The translations under genes were made by a program, and so were the position numbers. A model generated the notes under the pieces. That model did not search any database. It was not told the origin of the DNA and saw only the letters and a program-made list of their open reading frames with translations. A DNA stretch of 30,349 nt from a virus (taxonomy: Duplodnaviria > Heunggongvirae > Uroviricota > Caudoviricetes). Numbering within the stretch: position 1 is the stretch's first letter; each line of letters begins with the position of its first letter. The stretch is from the IMG/VR virus record IMGVR_UViG_2778261692_000006, one strand, 5' to 3'. Positions 15,788 through 22,477 of the stretch are shown here, one piece after another.

Positions 15788-15943
15788 ATGAAGCAGCAAA
15801 AGGCGATGTTAGTCGCCCTGATCGTCATCTGTTTAACCGTCATAGTGACGGCACTGGTAACGAGGAAAGACCTCTGCGAGGTACGAATCCGAACCGGCCA
15901 GACGGAGGTCGCTGTCTTCACAGCTTACGAACCTGAGGAGTAA
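15788..15943 (+). CDS. hok: Hok/Gef-family type I toxin (HokD/RelF-like membrane peptide)
   Basis: 51-aa product MKQQKAMLVALIVICLTVIVTALVTRKDLCEVRIRTGQTEVAVFTAYEPEE matches the Hok family as recalled; AAGGAG upstream; the track ORF (from 15731) adds a 19-aa in-frame extension. Confidence 0.85.
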   Translation: MKQQKAMLVALIVICLTVIVTALVTRKDLCEVRIRTGQTEVAVFTAYEPEE

Positions 15944-16012
15944 GAGACCAGGCGAGGGAGAAATCCCTCGCCACCTCTGATGAGTCAGGCATCCTCAACG
16001 CACCCGCGCTTA

Positions 16013-17102: not shown

Positions 17103-17392
17103 TGGTGGATTTACGTAAAGCGGCGCGGGGGCAGATGTGCACCGTCAGAATTCCTGGCTACTGCAATCACAATCCCGAAACTTCTGTGCTGGCGCATTAC
17201 AGGCTGGCGGGGACGTGCGGAACAGCGACAAAACCACACGATATGCAGGCTGCGATTGCCTGTAGCTCATGCCACGATTTAATCGACGGGCGGGTAAAAA
17301 CCAGCGATTACACCAAAGAAGAATTACGCCTGATGCACGCAGAAGGTGTTTTTCGTACGCAAGAAATCTGGAGAAAGGAAGGTTATTTATGA
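17102..17392 (+). CDS. YbcO-like Cys-rich protein (DUF1364, putative nuclease)
   Basis: 96 aa with Cys cluster C..C...C...CSSCHD; position before Q as for DLP12 ybcO; start overlaps the upstream stop (TAATG). Confidence 0.55.
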   Translation: MVDLRKAARGQMCTVRIPGYCNHNPETSVLAHYRLAGTCGTATKPHDMQAAIACSSCHDLIDGRVKTSDYTKEELRLMHAEGVFRTQEIWRKEGYL

Positions 17393-17943
17393 TTTACCCA
17401 ACAAATACAGGCAAAAGCGGGGAACACCTTCGTCTCACCACGCTGGAAAGTGTCTGGATTCAGGGAAAACTGCGCATGTGGGGGCGCTGGTCGTATATTG
17501 GCGGCGGTAAGACGGGGAATATGTTTAACCAGTTGCTGGCATCCAAAAAATTGACGAAAACAGCCATCAATGAAGCCCTGCGCAGAATGAAAAAAGTGGG
17601 AATGGATAAAATTGAGCTGGAAGCGTTTTTGCGAGAGATGATCAATGGCAAGCAAAAGACCTGGCTGGCGCATTGTACTGATGCAGAGGCGTTATGTATT
17701 GATCGAGTCATAAGTGAGGTGCTGGCAGAGCATCCTGGATTGATTAGTGTCCTCCGGCAACGGTATGAAGGGCGGGGGATGACTAAGCGCAAAATGGCTG
17801 AATTGCTAAATGATGCACATCCTGAGTGGTGTTACGCCACGTGCCGTAATCGCATAGATGCGTGGTTGAAAATGGCAGAGTTTATGCTCTATCTGCCGAT
17901 GCGTGATGCATTCTCTTCCGGGGATCTAAAAACCGTCTGTTGA
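17389..17943 (+). CDS. Q-like late-gene antiterminator
   Basis: 184 aa from MIYPTNTGK (ATGA overlap with YbcO-like stop); position immediately upstream of terminator hairpins and the late region; contains a W..GRW motif. Confidence 0.5.
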   Translation: MIYPTNTGKSGEHLRLTTLESVWIQGKLRMWGRWSYIGGGKTGNMFNQLLASKKLTKTAINEALRRMKKVGMDKIELEAFLREMINGKQKTWLAHCTDAEALCIDRVISEVLAEHPGLISVLRQRYEGRGMTKRKMAELLNDAHPEWCYATCRNRIDAWLKMAEFMLYLPMRDAFSSGDLKTVC

Positions 17944-18029
17944 CTCAATCTGTTATCCGGGGCTATATTCCTCACGCGCCAGCAAAATCTGGCGTCGGGA
18001 TTGGCGTCCCGGATGAAAAAGGCGACAAC

Positions 18030-18050
18030 AGACGCGCCAGCGTCTTTTTT
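18030..18050 (+). terminator. tR'-like terminator downstream of Q
   Basis: Stem AGACGC / GCGTCT with loop GCCA followed by TTTTTT; another hairpin CGCCAG caaaat CTGGCG lies about 40 nt upstream. Confidence 0.5.
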
Positions 18051-18208
18051 ATTGTCGTTTGCACTGTCACATCTCAATGGTGGGCTGTGTGGGGGCGGAG
18101 CGATCCGCGCCGGTTCCTTTTTCCCGGTTACGCCAACCCTGCACAGTTCACCACCATACTGATTGGCGTCAGCAGTGGTGATGATTCACATAGAAAAAGG
18201 ATCATCCT

Positions 18209-18763
18209 ATGGCTATTCAAATCTCAGTTGAAACTCTTTCCCCGATCACCCATAACCAAATCCCTGTCATTACTACCGAGCTTTTGGCACAACTTTATGG
18301 CACCGAAACTAATAACATCAAAGTGAACTATACACGCAATGCCGAGCGTTTTGTTTGTGGGAAACACTACTTCAAATTGGAAGGGGCTGAGTTGCGGGAA
18401 TTTAAGAACAAGGTTACTCAAAGTAACTTAGTTGCACCGCGTACAAAGCACCTCATCCTCTGGACAGAACGCGGAGCAGCCCGTCACGCCAAAATGCTGG
18501 AAACCGATCAGGCGTGGGAAGTGTTCGAAAAACTGGAAGACTGCTATTTCAGACAAAAGGATCCGTCAGCGCCAGCTTCATGCCAGAAAAGTTACGACAC
18601 GCGAGTTCTCTGTTATCAGCGAGGCGGTGTCACTGTTTCCACAATTCAGTTGCGGGATGATGATATTGTTATTTCCCTTGAGTCATGGCTGGAACTGGCG
18701 AGAGCCAATGGTTGGTTTGTTGTTCGCAGAGATAAACTGGTGGAAAGGCTGATGCAGCTTTAA
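18209..18763 (+). CDS. ORF6N-domain protein (antirepressor-like N-terminal domain)
   Basis: 184 aa; N-terminal 100 aa fit the ORF6N pattern as recalled (IPVITTELLAQLYG...HYFKLEGAELREFK...LILWTERGAARHAKMLETDQAWEVFEKLEDCYF); AAGGA Shine-Dalgarno. Confidence 0.5.
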   Translation: MAIQISVETLSPITHNQIPVITTELLAQLYGTETNNIKVNYTRNAERFVCGKHYFKLEGAELREFKNKVTQSNLVAPRTKHLILWTERGAARHAKMLETDQAWEVFEKLEDCYFRQKDPSAPASCQKSYDTRVLCYQRGGVTVSTIQLRDDDIVISLESWLELARANGWFVVRRDKLVERLMQL

Positions 18764-18859
18764 AAAAGTTCTTGCAATTTTAGCCATAAACTGCTTCAAT
18801 TCCGTTACGCTTCGCAAAGCTGTATCGCGAGGCGAACCAAGCGCATGAACTTTACCAGA

Positions 18860-18886
18860 ACCCGCCATTGAGCGGGTTTTGTTGTT
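18860..18886 (+). terminator. Rho-independent terminator after the ORF6N gene
   Basis: Stem ACCCGC / GCGGGT with loop CATTGA followed by TTTTGTTGTTT. Confidence 0.6.
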
Positions 18887-18900
18887 TCTGGAGAACACCC

Positions 18901-19173
18901 ATGAAATTTTATGAATTATCTTCTGATTCCCGATCTCAGGCCAAAATCACACTGGGTCAGTTGATTGTGGCTCGGGCTAACACCGGGGTGGATGATTTTG
19001 AAAATTTGAGGCATTGCATCGCTGCCGCGTTTATTGCGATGGAGCGCCATGAAAGCGCCCCTGAGGTTGGTGAGGGGCGTAGCGGGAACGGAATACCCGT
19101 TAATGGCGATCAAAAACTAGCATCCAACGTCGTGAACGTGATGATTCACTATCCGTGTGACTCTATAGCGTGA
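18901..19173 (+). CDS. Hypothetical 91-aa protein (moron)
   Basis: ATG at 18901 with GGAGA upstream (track ORF from 18868); no family recognised. Confidence 0.5.
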   Translation: MKFYELSSDSRSQAKITLGQLIVARANTGVDDFENLRHCIAAAFIAMERHESAPEVGEGRSGNGIPVNGDQKLASNVVNVMIHYPCDSIA

Positions 19174-19229
19174 CAGCGACAGTAAATTGGGTAAAATTTT
19201 CTACGCTGCAATATGCGAAAGGGGATGAA

Positions 19230-19799
19230 ATGAACGATCTGCCCGATGACTACTTTCTTGATGCTGACGATGATCTTGTCGATTTTCTTGAAAAACAGGG
19301 TGAAGACTGCATAGGTGAAATCTATCGGTCAAATTCAGTAAATAAAGAAAATGGCTATAAGCTGTTGAGCATCCTAATCGTCGGTATTGGATCTTCATTT
19401 TTGCTGTTAACGCAAAAGACGCAGATTGACTTTCTTAGCGCAGGCATTGCCGTTTTCACCGTGTACTGGTCAGTTTGTGCTATTTATCTTGTTATTAATG
19501 TGCTGACGGTTCACACATACGGACTTGTTTCCACATCACCTGCAGATTTGTATACCGAAGCTTATAAAGGGATTTGCGAGTCCGATTTCGAGAACCTTAA
19601 GGCAAGGGGTTTTGTCGGTAAAAATGACCGCCTTTCAGTGATGAGGCGGTACAGATTGAAAACGTTATGTGTGACTGCTGATGAGTTGCTCCAGGTCAAT
19701 GAAACCATAAGAACCAGACTGAAAAAAGCAAGGATAGCGACTATCCTTGCTCCTGTTTACGCGATTATTATTTCAGCTATCACTTACCTTTTTTTCTGA
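19230..19799 (+). CDS. Hypothetical membrane protein with acidic N-terminus and three predicted transmembrane segments (moron)
   Basis: ATG at 19230 with AAAGGGGA upstream (alternative GTG at 19170 overlaps the upstream stop); hydrophobic segments LLSILIVGIGSSFLLL, AGIAVFTVYWSVCAIYLVINVL and IATILAPVYAIIISAITYLFF. Confidence 0.55.
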   Translation: MNDLPDDYFLDADDDLVDFLEKQGEDCIGEIYRSNSVNKENGYKLLSILIVGIGSSFLLLTQKTQIDFLSAGIAVFTVYWSVCAIYLVINVLTVHTYGLVSTSPADLYTEAYKGICESDFENLKARGFVGKNDRLSVMRRYRLKTLCVTADELLQVNETIRTRLKKARIATILAPVYAIIISAITYLFF

Positions 19800-19926
19800 T
19801 TCCTTCAGCGGAATCACCAACGATCCTTCTACCGACTGAAAAACGGTCGGGTTGAACTGGGGCCGGTTTTTGCTGCTGTGTTGGCTGTGGCTTGCTTTCA
19901 CCTGCCGGCTTGTTTGACTGGCTCAT
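19780..19926 (-). CDS. Candidate 48-aa Pro/Gln-rich basic protein, convergent with the membrane-protein gene
   Basis: Hand translation MSQSNKPAGESKPQPTQQQKPAPVQPDRFSVGRRIVGDSAEGIRKKGK; GGAGA Shine-Dalgarno 5 nt upstream; palindrome GATAAGGTTATC just upstream; below the ORF-track cutoff. Confidence 0.3.
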   Translation of the reverse strand: MSQSNKPAGESKPQPTQQQKPAPVQPDRFSVGRRIVGDSAEGIRKKGK

Positions 19927-20020
19927 CTAATTCTCCATATTTGATAAGGTTATCTTTGGCGATTTAACGATATCAAACACGAGGATATACCGCCAGAAGC
20001 TTAATCTGGCACTCCATCTG

Positions 20021-20045
20021 GCCCCGGCATGTCCCGGGGCTTTTT
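20021..20045 (+). terminator. Strong Rho-independent terminator upstream of the lysis cassette
   Basis: 7-bp GC stem GCCCCGG / CCGGGGC with loop CATGTC followed by TTTTT. Confidence 0.7.
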
Positions 20046-20143
20046 CGTTGTTAGGCTCCGGAAACATCCTCGACTTCTTGTGAGCAAGCCTGAGGGCCTG
20101 AATCTTACACTTAGCACCATCCGAACTCTCGGAGGTGAGGCTT

Positions 20144-20485
20144 ATGAAAATGCACAATGCCCCTCATTCCTGGCCTGACTTACTGGAACTCTTACAAAGT
20201 TGGTGGCGTGGAGATACGCCGCTGGGCGCAGTGGTTATGTCAATTATTATGGCTGGTTTGCGCATTGCCTATTTTGGCGGTGGCGGCGGCTGGAAACGAA
20301 AAACGCTTGAGATTCTGCTTTGTGGTGCTCTGACGCTGACCTTTGCATCCGCGCTTGAGTATGTCGGATGGCCTAAATCACTTTCTGTTGCCATTGGTGG
20401 TGGGGTGGGGCTGATTGGTGTTGATGCTATTCGTGGTGCGGCAATGAGGGTCATCGGTAACAAGTTCGGTGCCCATAAGGAGTAA
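20144..20485 (+). CDS. Holin, lambda S-like with Met-Lys-Met dual-start motif
   Basis: MKMHNAP... with GGAGG 8 nt upstream; hydrophobic segments; directly precedes the endolysin gene (track ORF from a GTG at 20135). Confidence 0.7.
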   Translation: MKMHNAPHSWPDLLELLQSWWRGDTPLGAVVMSIIMAGLRIAYFGGGGGWKRKTLEILLCGALTLTFASALEYVGWPKSLSVAIGGGVGLIGVDAIRGAAMRVIGNKFGAHKE

Positions 20486-21341: not shown

Positions 21342-21504
21342 AACACCCCAGCCAGATTTACCCGACCCGTTTACGTGGGGAGCCAGCCTTAACCTGAATG
21401 TTGCGTTGTTGTCAGCGTTAGCACAGTGCAACAGGGATAAGGCTGATATCAGGATTTTTGAGAAAAACAGGGCAGCACAAACCAATGGCACGATTAAACG
21501 TTGA
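21226..21504 (+). CDS. Rz1-like outer-membrane lipoprotein spanin, overlapping Rz in another frame
   Basis: Start MMIALFVLFLLAQLSGC with lipobox LSGC; Pro-rich mature part; begins inside Rz and extends 163 nt beyond its stop. Confidence 0.5.
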   Translation: MMIALFVLFLLAQLSGCTNTRTVYVSVPVIPLPASLTAETPQPDLPDPFTWGASLNLNVALLSALAQCNRDKADIRIFEKNRAAQTNGTIKR

Positions 21505-21670
21505 AGTTATCCCACCAGACAGCGAAACGATGAACGAGATTTTTGCAGAGATTGAACGTAAATATGCGCATCAGCCGATGACGCCAAAAGTTATCGATGA
21601 AATGCAACGCGAAGCGGCGCGCCTTGTAAGGCGAGTGACAAACACGAAGGTTACGTTTGTTCGGGACTGA
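21485..21670 (+). CDS. Small hypothetical protein
   Basis: ORF from MARLNVEV overlapping the Rz1-like 3' end; no family recognised. Confidence 0.3.
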   Translation: MARLNVEVIPPDSETMNEIFAEIERKYAHQPMTPKVIDEMQREAARLVRRVTNTKVTFVRD

Positions 21671-21727
21671 CATTACAGAAGCTCCTTTGATAAGGGGCTT
21701 CGATAATGTCACTAAGAGGAAAAATTC

Positions 21728-22477
21728 ATGGCAAAACCGGACTGGGAGGCCATCGAATCGGCATACCGGGCCGGAGTCCTTAGCCTCCGTGATATAGGCG
21801 AGAAATACGGCGTTACAGAAGGGGCTATCAGGAAGAGGGCCAAAAAGCTTGGTTGGGTACGCAGTGGCGGTACGCAGGTTTGCAAAAATGGTACGCAAAA
21901 AAGAAAAGTGCGTACCAGCAGAAAGCCTGCCATTACTGGCCTTACACAAAAAGGTACGCAACCAAAAACAGAACCTACACTGGATACGAAACCGATACGC
22001 GGAATGCGTACCGATCCCCCGACTAACCCATTCCAACCCGGTAACCAGCAGGCATTAAAACACGGTGGTTATGCCCGTCGCCTTCTGCTCAAAGATGAGG
22101 TGATAGAGGACGCTAAAGCGTTGACGCTCGAGGACGAATTATTTCGCCTTCGTGCTAACAACCTTGTCGCTGCAGAGAATATTGGTCGGTGGCTGGTGTC
22201 GCTGGAAGATGCTAATGGGGACCAGGAAAGGAAGATGCTGATGGAAAATATCAGCGCCGCCGAGAAAGCAATGATGCGCAATACAGTTCGTATTGAGTCC
22301 ATCGTTGGCACGCTTGCGACGGTAGGAAAAATATTTGCTGATACAGCCTACCGCAAGGCCGCCACTGATAAGGTGTCTCTGGAGGCTGATCGTCTTCGCC
22401 GTGATGCAGGTATTGATGATGGCAATGGAGAGCGTGACCTCAATGACTTCTACTCTGACATCCAAACCGACGCTTAA
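21728..22477 (+). CDS. Terminase small subunit
   Basis: N-terminal HTH-like segment VLSLRDIGEKYGVTEGAIRKRAKKLGW; directly upstream of and overlapping the large terminase gene. Confidence 0.6.
   Translation: MAKPDWEAIESAYRAGVLSLRDIGEKYGVTEGAIRKRAKKLGWVRSGGTQVCKNGTQKRKVRTSRKPAITGLTQKGTQPKTEPTLDTKPIRGMRTDPPTNPFQPGNQQALKHGGYARRLLLKDEVIEDAKALTLEDELFRLRANNLVAAENIGRWLVSLEDANGDQERKMLMENISAAEKAMMRNTVRIESIVGTLATVGKIFADTAYRKAATDKVSLEADRLRRDAGIDDGNGERDLNDFYSDIQTDA

Follow-up and report, generated by a model that had tools for sequence, protein, structure and literature searches.

Genes in the slot between the antiterminator and the holin

We analysed the slot between the late antiterminator gene Q and the holin gene of IMGVR_UViG_2778261692_000006, a 30,349-nucleotide stretch of viral DNA (the window) that belongs to a lambdoid (Rac/Gifsy-like) E. 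coli prophage and is, over the compared stretch at 18850-19950, 99.9% identical to a prophage of BCE049. The slot lies between a Q-type antiterminator of the DUF1133 family (Pfam; 17389-17943) and a lambda-family holin (20147-20485), which is followed by lysozyme and Rz, as an earlier note on this DNA had described. It contains gene A (18901-19173) and gene B (19230-19799) on the plus strand and gene C (19926-19780) on the minus strand; C converges on B, and the 3' ends of the two genes overlap by 20 nucleotides (nt). The earlier note had taken A and B for a two-gene module in which a small soluble protein accompanies a membrane protein. Our results show that the feature is real and not an artefact, and that the pairing has to be corrected to B-C: the wrong small gene had been chosen, and the partner of B is the convergent gene C. 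Judged from its sequence, the stretch from about 19170 to 20046 appears to be a self-contained two-gene convergent prophage cargo cassette, or moron, that does not include A. The cassette is of a familiar kind (a prophage moron in a SieB-like niche), and its family and architecture are undescribed in the libraries and literature that we searched. B and C together are the unit that any experiment would need to clone.

The pairing of B with C is based on their co-occurrence. Every one of the 15 B-intact loci inspected by hand (E. coli, Serratia, Yersinia, Trabulsiella, Citrobacter and Leclercia) also carries C, as do 73 of 77 IMG/VR loci, in which C takes 36 distinct sequences. A hidden Markov model of the A family, on the other hand, detects an A-like open reading frame (ORF) in just 5 of 97 B-carrying loci, and in four of these five (Serratia L005-L007, L068; L numbers denote the compared loci) it is located downstream of the cassette, just before the lysis genes. 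The full A+B stretch was found in 5 of 5,426 complete E. coli genomes, as opposed to roughly 250 that carry a diverged allele of B-C without A; in phage vB_EcoS-666R9, and in about 246 E. coli genomes, Q is followed immediately by a B of 57% identity, and A is missing. RM8082-type prophages present the same flanks with a 76-amino-acid (aa) version of A and then an unrelated 92-aa minus-strand gene, and carry neither B nor C.

Gene A encodes a protein of 90 aa (phrog_26625), one residue shorter than first reported, and is the first ORF after the upstream terminator. Its solubility is borne out by the absence of any hydrophobic segment (maximum 19-residue Kyte-Doolittle mean 0.64). The AlphaFold2 model, a helical hairpin of two helices with a disordered tail, reaches a predicted local distance difference test score (pLDDT) of 57, which did not justify a fold search. 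Members of the A family are usually 63-76 aa long, and the DNA identity between the window and RM8082 stops near 19115; residues ~73-90 of A, its last ~18, are therefore derived from the junction, and its stop codon falls inside the -35 hexamer of the promoter-like site of B. A lacks a promoter-like site of its own: its ATG, with GGAGAACAC before it, stands 20 nt past the terminator stem, and the Serratia copy is preceded by the same context. That A and B form an exclusion or abortive-infection module, as the earlier note proposed, would agree with their adjacency on one strand between terminators in the window and its near-identical twins. This reading is contradicted by the co-occurrence data and by the junction-derived tail of A overlapping the -35 hexamer, and we regard it as hardly tenable. 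A is best read, on sequence grounds, as an independent small first ORF of the late operon, outside the B-C cassette.

Gene B encodes a predicted inner-membrane protein of 189 aa (phrog_11870). The ORF called mechanically starts at a GTG at 19170; the conserved start is the ATG at 19230, with AAGGGGA before it, and from this start almost all homologues are 189 aa long. The three transmembrane (TM) segments and the strongly acidic N-terminus attributed to B earlier were both recovered: hydrophobic segments span residues 42-60, 66-95 and 169-187, and residues 1-30 have a net charge of -11. The central region has a net charge of +5, and the positive-inside rule puts both this region and the N-terminus in the cytoplasm. 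The AlphaFold2 model (mean pLDDT 84) has a helix at 14-62 that runs into TM1, TM2 at 68-92, three short helices at 104-125 and a helix at 134-188 that ends in TM3. B is thus predicted to adopt an N-in/C-out topology with three TM helices and a cytoplasmic part of ~120 residues, modelled as a helical bundle headed by the acidic helix.

The B family comprises 145 clusters at 90% identity, nearly all of exactly 189 aa, and extends throughout the Enterobacterales, with relatives in Salmonella, Klebsiella, Citrobacter, Enterobacter, Serratia, Yersinia, Proteus and other genera. When 1.84 billion representative proteins were searched with a profile, only 94 relatives of B (34-390 aa, mostly 160-220) were returned, none of which bridges to a named family.

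Gene C encodes a basic, low-complexity protein of 48 aa (phrog_14506) behind a Shine-Dalgarno (SD) sequence GGAG at 19933-19936. The window copy has an isoelectric point of 10.6 and a net charge of +6, and the family follows the pattern MS(Q/E)xNKP...E(S/N)KPQ, a Pro/Gln/Lys-rich stretch, F(S/A/T)xxRxxVGDSA(E/D) and a basic tail; the protein is probably disordered. Outside the overlap with B, comparison with the window copy gives 0.63-0.91 synonymous changes per site, close to saturation, and 0.10-0.38 non-synonymous changes, and the median ratio of the two rates (dN/dS) over informative locus pairs is 0.24. C therefore encodes a protein and is subject to purifying selection.

All annotated copies of B are labelled 'hypothetical', and C is often left unannotated, as in the RefSeq record of BCE049 (L001 6950-7295, equivalent to window 19799-20144). 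Elsewhere RefSeq calls C as a 71-aa protein from an upstream GTG (L020 2817-3032; L021 2811-3026). This longer frame reads across a conserved box in the leader of C, and in the window it is closed by a stop just before the start of C.

Neither A nor B had been recognised in the earlier note. A, B and C have no match in Pfam or NCBIfam, and in PHROGs all three belong to families of unknown function; no homology to virion or lysis proteins was found in Pfam or PHROGs. For B, no family was found by a sequence profile search of the PDB or by Foldseek against the PDB and BFVD, which returned only generic long-helix bundles, and Pfam scans of 67 diverse family members assigned none to a named family. 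B matches no holin model in Pfam or PHROGs, though the same scans identify the neighbouring lambda-family holin, and its predicted N-in/C-out topology with ~120 cytoplasmic residues differs from class I-III holins. No Rex or toxin-antitoxin model in Pfam, PHROGs, PADLOC or NCBIfam matches B or C. A literature search on the protein accessions and on Q-holin defence hotspots yielded nothing on the B-C family; a paper on the svsR small RNA (sRNA) proved to concern a different locus.

Regulatory elements of the cassette

A promoter-like element, GTGACA-16 nt-TAAAAT, precedes B on the plus strand (19170-19197; 10 of 12 consensus matches). A GGTAAAAT-like element, with one substitution allowed, is found in 64 of 77 IMG/VR loci, mostly 28-34 nt 5' of the start of B, and the TAAAAT element also occurs in distant relatives. 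In many B loci a terminator stands a short distance upstream of this promoter-like element.

Intrinsic terminators bracket the region, as had been noted. The upstream one resembles tR' (18856-18891, plus strand; hairpin 18856-18881, -16.1 kcal/mol, z -3.3) and has a T-rich tail. It is kept in all four aligned loci; many E. coli genomes give partial matches that cover little beyond query positions 1-42/47, with the terminator within. The downstream one (20020-20046, plus strand; hairpin 20020-20041, -16.4 kcal/mol, z -2.7) combines a hairpin with a T run that recurs at this position in most of 11 diverse aligned loci. Terminator-like sites as such are no more frequent in the region than chance predicts (4 found, 4.3 expected); despite this, both flanking terminators are conserved in position in related loci. 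Since the downstream plus-strand terminator lies beyond C, both a transcript of B and a late transcript modified by Q would cover C and its leader in antisense over their full length. A consensus scan of the region found no minus-strand terminator after C.

The leader of C (19927-19990, minus strand) is itself conserved. It contains a near-invariant 18-nt box, GGCGATTTAACGATATCA as read on the plus strand (19958-19975), which is present in 60 of 77 IMG/VR loci and conserved far above both coding regions. By eye, no sigma-70, sigma-E, sigma-28 or sigma-54 promoter and no IHF site fits the box consistently across loci, and Rfam gave no significant match for the leader, only noise below threshold. 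A weak promoter-like sequence, GTGCCA-17 nt-TATATC (19984-20012, minus strand; 8 of 12 matches), was read from the alignments and not flagged by the scan; it lies just 5' of the box and is the best, if speculative, candidate for a promoter of C.

The leader is predicted to fold into a hairpin (-15.7 kcal/mol, z -2.8) with an outer stem at 19940-19946/19971-19977 (UUUGAUA/UAUCAAA), an inner stem at 19949-19952/19965-19968 (GUUA/UAAC) and a conserved loop; an extension of the stem reaches the SD sequence of C. Because RNAalifold returned no consensus structure, pairing was counted on a hand-drawn structure in 24 distinct sequences and compared with slid controls. In the drawn structure 80.5% of cells pair, as opposed to 29-42% in the slid controls; two pairs (C-G/U-A and A-U/G-C) show compensatory changes, and only 3 of 500 shuffles equalled the covariation score. 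The hairpin is thus supported by these counts but not proven, and the opposite strand is able to form a similar one. In RM8082 (L002 4268-4546, minus strand) the leader, with box, hairpin and SD sequence, is fused to the unrelated 92-aa ORF (phrog_8894), and it therefore behaves as a portable expression element for minus-strand cargo.

Niches of the cassette and its possible role

The occupancy of the Q-holin slot varies across related prophages, and the cassette is present or absent even among near-identical ones: RM8082-type prophages share both flanks and have no B or C. The genes beside it come from three Q families (DUF1133, PF06530, PF03589) and include four or more holin/lysozyme types. 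The earlier view of the region as autonomous cargo gains from this variable presence, from the mixed Q and lysis flanks and from the conserved putative -10 element and terminator of the cassette itself. In concordance with the Hendrix/Juhala definition of lambdoid morons (HK97 gp15, lambda bor and lom), B-C is present or absent between genes that are adjacent in close relatives, as seen in RM8082-type and 666R9-type phages and in the shuffled Q/holin flanks. Like those morons, it occupies a known cargo slot between a promoter-like element and a terminator, which are consensus matches backed by conservation (10 of 12 for the promoter-like element, terminators on both sides). It differs from them in being a two-gene convergent unit with a conserved structured leader and in having no homology to described moron products.

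A cassette built like an independently expressed moron, widely distributed in the Enterobacterales and placed in a slot known to carry toxins and fitness genes, could also serve lysogenic conversion unrelated to phages, with B acting for instance in envelope stress, ion homeostasis or host colonisation. No specific host function is indicated, and the sieB-like position beside the repressor described below favours a phage-directed role, so that we consider this explanation very unlikely.

The position of the close relatives raises another explanation, in which B is an accessory of the lytic cycle. B would primarily be produced late, from the transcript antiterminated by Q and just ahead of the holin; it might lower the proton-motive force to tune holin triggering or block superinfection during lytic growth, and C would only stop leaky B activity in lysogens. 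The close relatives all share the late-operon orientation and a place between Q and the lysis genes, B is the first gene after the likely pR'/tR' block in 666R9-type phages, and C opposes late transcription and would be silenced by it. As opposed to this, the cassette occurs regardless of holin type, close relatives that lack it still lyse, no holin or antiholin model fits B, and its own conserved -10 element and upstream terminator would be needless for a simple late-operon gene. The distant relatives of B are also located in immunity or early regions, far from the lysis genes. A lytic accessory role is, in our estimation, unlikely.

These distant relatives (21-30% identity to B) retain the gene arrangement: in L022, L025, L026, L027, L111 and L113 a convergent small ORF abuts or overlaps the 3' end of B. 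In L025 a CI-like repressor gene (phrog_4, E = 1e-38), encoded on the strand of C, ends 15 nt before C begins, an indirect hint that the cassette may be expressed from the repressed prophage. In L111 and L026 the gene ahead of C resembles a repressor and diverges from ydaS/cro-like genes; in L022 a ribbon-helix-helix gene lies directly 5' of C, and L113 is an early-region locus. A similar layout surrounds sieB: racR-ydaG-ydaF converges on sieB in the Rac prophage of K-12, and N converges on it in lambda and P22. Thus, in K-12 Rac as in L025, L026 and L111, a small gene behind a repressor converges on a membrane gene, and the position and orientation of sieB in Rac are matched by these three distant relatives, not by the window copy or its close relatives. 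By eye, without formal comparison, YdaF and YdaG have no visible resemblance to C.

SieB of lambda, P22 and Rac (PF14163) is, like B, a prophage membrane protein of similar size (162-192 aa, compared with 189 aa), and P22 sieB is annotated with its own promoter as B has a conserved promoter-like -10 element. B is not a homologue of SieB, however: hhalign of the 67-sequence B profile against lambda and P22 SieB gave a probability of 0.3%, and PF14163, which matches both SieB proteins as controls, does not match B (no Pfam hit at E <= 1). We know of no sieB in the Q-holin slot, and to our knowledge the mechanism of SieB is still unsolved.

Based on these comparisons, our preferred reading, which we hold with somewhat less than even confidence, is that B may be a membrane-acting effector of exclusion or abortive infection in the SieB niche, restrained by C. 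We infer the membrane activity of B, its antagonism by C and the effect on phages. An exclusion or abortive-infection role is plausible and gains weight because the distant relatives adjoin a repressor, in the position that sieB takes in Rac.

Several observations weigh against this reading. All close relatives are located between the late antiterminator and the lysis genes in late-operon orientation, which fits a lytic role equally well. The periplasmic exposure of B in the predicted topology is limited to a loop of ~6 residues and the C-terminal end, which argues against a classical block of DNA injection. PADLOC-DB v2.0.0 (2023 release) identified no defence system: A and C had no match and B a single match at chance level (PDLC00748, E = 0.029), a result that is neutral for a new family and lends no support. 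No convincing sigma-70 promoter for C was found in the consensus scan or in the alignments. The failure of RNAalifold to find a consensus in the C leader belongs here as well, along with the low covariation of the hairpin, which is due to the near invariance of the sequence. Finally, the distant locus L112 has an acidic, dissimilar convergent ORF in the place of C.

The same repressor-adjacent loci are compatible with maintenance in the manner of a toxin-antitoxin pair, in which B would be a membrane toxin and C a labile antitoxin, with C synthesis coupled to the repressor transcript in some phages; once the prophage or its lysogenic transcription was lost, B would be released and would kill or arrest the cell, which would stabilise the prophage. 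The strict linkage of B and C speaks for this, as does the shared orientation of C and the repressor gene in L025, L111 and L026, and the ribbon-helix-helix gene of L022 would fit as well. Labile antitoxins are often short and basic and of low complexity, and C has all three traits. The convergent arrangement is atypical for protein-protein pairs, though, and neither protein matches a toxin or antitoxin family; B-C differs from type II pairs in its convergent genes and in having no toxin-antitoxin domain. We judge such a role to be improbable; as its mechanism overlaps with that of abortive infection, it is not cleanly separable from the exclusion or abortive-infection reading.

If B is indeed such an effector, it could be made at a low level in the lysogen from its own promoter, where C would restrain it by binding B, by convergent transcription and antisense pairing, or by both. 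We speculate that C (+6) could bind the acidic N-terminal helix of B (-11) directly through their complementary charges. When the transcription tied to lysogeny stops, or when Q drives late transcription through B, an antisense B transcript would run over all of C; the balance would then shift to B, and exclusion or abortive infection of other phages would follow. A more specific version, which is possible but doubtful, is that B-C might be an undescribed two-component system composed of a three-helix membrane effector, a convergent microprotein and a sense/antisense RNA switch centred on the leader hairpin. Such a system would read lysogenic versus lytic transcription and would serve exclusion, abortive infection or addiction as a non-homologous replacement of sieB.

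Lambda RexA/RexB offers a partial parallel, as a prophage pair of a cytoplasmic protein and a multi-pass inner-membrane protein that is tied to the repressor transcript, as C and B may be. The two rex genes run in the same direction within one operon. RexB, which has four TM helices, is additionally produced late from a promoter of its own, pLIT, a precedent for a late membrane component. B-C differs in its convergent overlap, as opposed to a co-directional operon, and in that C has only 48 aa.

PycTM (PF18967), the TM effector of the Pycsar defence system, is, like B, a small membrane-helical protein of mobile elements. One distant relative of B (P0164) matches it weakly over a TM segment (E = 0.016). 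For the window protein itself no hit was obtained at E <= 1, and of the 67 diverse members scanned none matches PycTM at E <= 0.01. No pyrimidine cyclase gene was called or recognised beside B in any locus examined.

If B-C is an exclusion or abortive-infection system, it would represent a new family with an unusual control logic of convergent overlapping genes and a near-invariant leader, and a tractable analogue of SieB; it would also bear on the prediction of phage host range, including for phage therapy against Enterobacterales. If B-C tunes lysis instead, a new, portable regulator would be added to the lysis programme.

Flanking features and related loci

The local gene order begins with DUF1367 and DUF1364 genes, 5' of Q. 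Directly 3' of the Q gene there is a match to the IsrK sRNA (17976-18050, 79 bits), whose promoter, TTGACT-18-TATATT, overlaps the Q stop codon; a terminator lies at 18030-18045. Matches to the c4-a1b1 and C4 antisense RNAs are found at 17963-18015 and 18073-18158, and an ORF6N antirepressor-like gene (18209-18763) lies between this RNA region and the tR'-like terminator. An antQ-isrK-orf45-anrP layout has been reported in Gifsy-1 (PMC4825925), and window 17963-18763 corresponds to this layout together with C4 control of the P1 immI type.

A conserved block at 18772-18891 then consists of TTGCAA-17-TTCAAT, a spacer of ~55 nt and the tR'-like terminator. The promoter-like TTGCAA-17 nt-TTCAAT at its head (18772-18800, plus strand) was read from the sequence and was not flagged by the consensus scan; it is likely the pR' late-promoter region, a context feature outside the cassette. 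In vB_EcoS-666R9 the block directly follows an 88%-identical Q gene, which suggests that it is probably the true pR'/tR' unit. If so, the IsrK-C4-ORF6N module, which 666R9-type phages lack at least as regards ORF6N, would probably be an insertion between Q and pR'. The block holds the position of isrJ in Gifsy-1; Rfam gave no isrJ match for it and only an isrK-like match of 11.5 bits, below threshold.

Other genes occur in or near the slot in related loci. In a Citrobacter prophage locus (L008 5820-6127) and in the related IMG/VR loci L085 (4820-5053) and L091 (4814-4965), a tRNA array (Met, Phe or Leu, Thr, Gly) is located between B-C and the holin; Stx phages have tRNA genes in the same slot. 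In two Serratia loci (L006, L007 4754-4939) an Ogr/Delta zinc-finger gene, of the P2-type late activator family, lies directly 5' of B, between the PF03589 antiterminator and the cassette.

Downstream, between the lysis genes and the small terminase subunit, a minus-strand ORF of 180 aa (window 21494-22036; L001 8955-9503) corresponds to the RefSeq hypothetical protein WP_000762846.1. This ORF may represent a further cargo gene on the opposite strand, placed as bor is in lambda. In the nin region, 5' of DUF1367, a hokD-type type I toxin gene is annotated at L001 2954-3109 (about 15803-15958 in the window, by offset), and equivalent Hok genes are annotated in RM8082, pPE4 and DEC5E. The pPE4 record (L004, PP818812.1), named 'Actinobacillus phage vB_Apl-pPE4', has 95% nucleotide identity to window 18700-18896 and an E. 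coli-type layout of the nin and Q genes, which suggests an enterobacterial lambdoid phage or a mis-assigned host.

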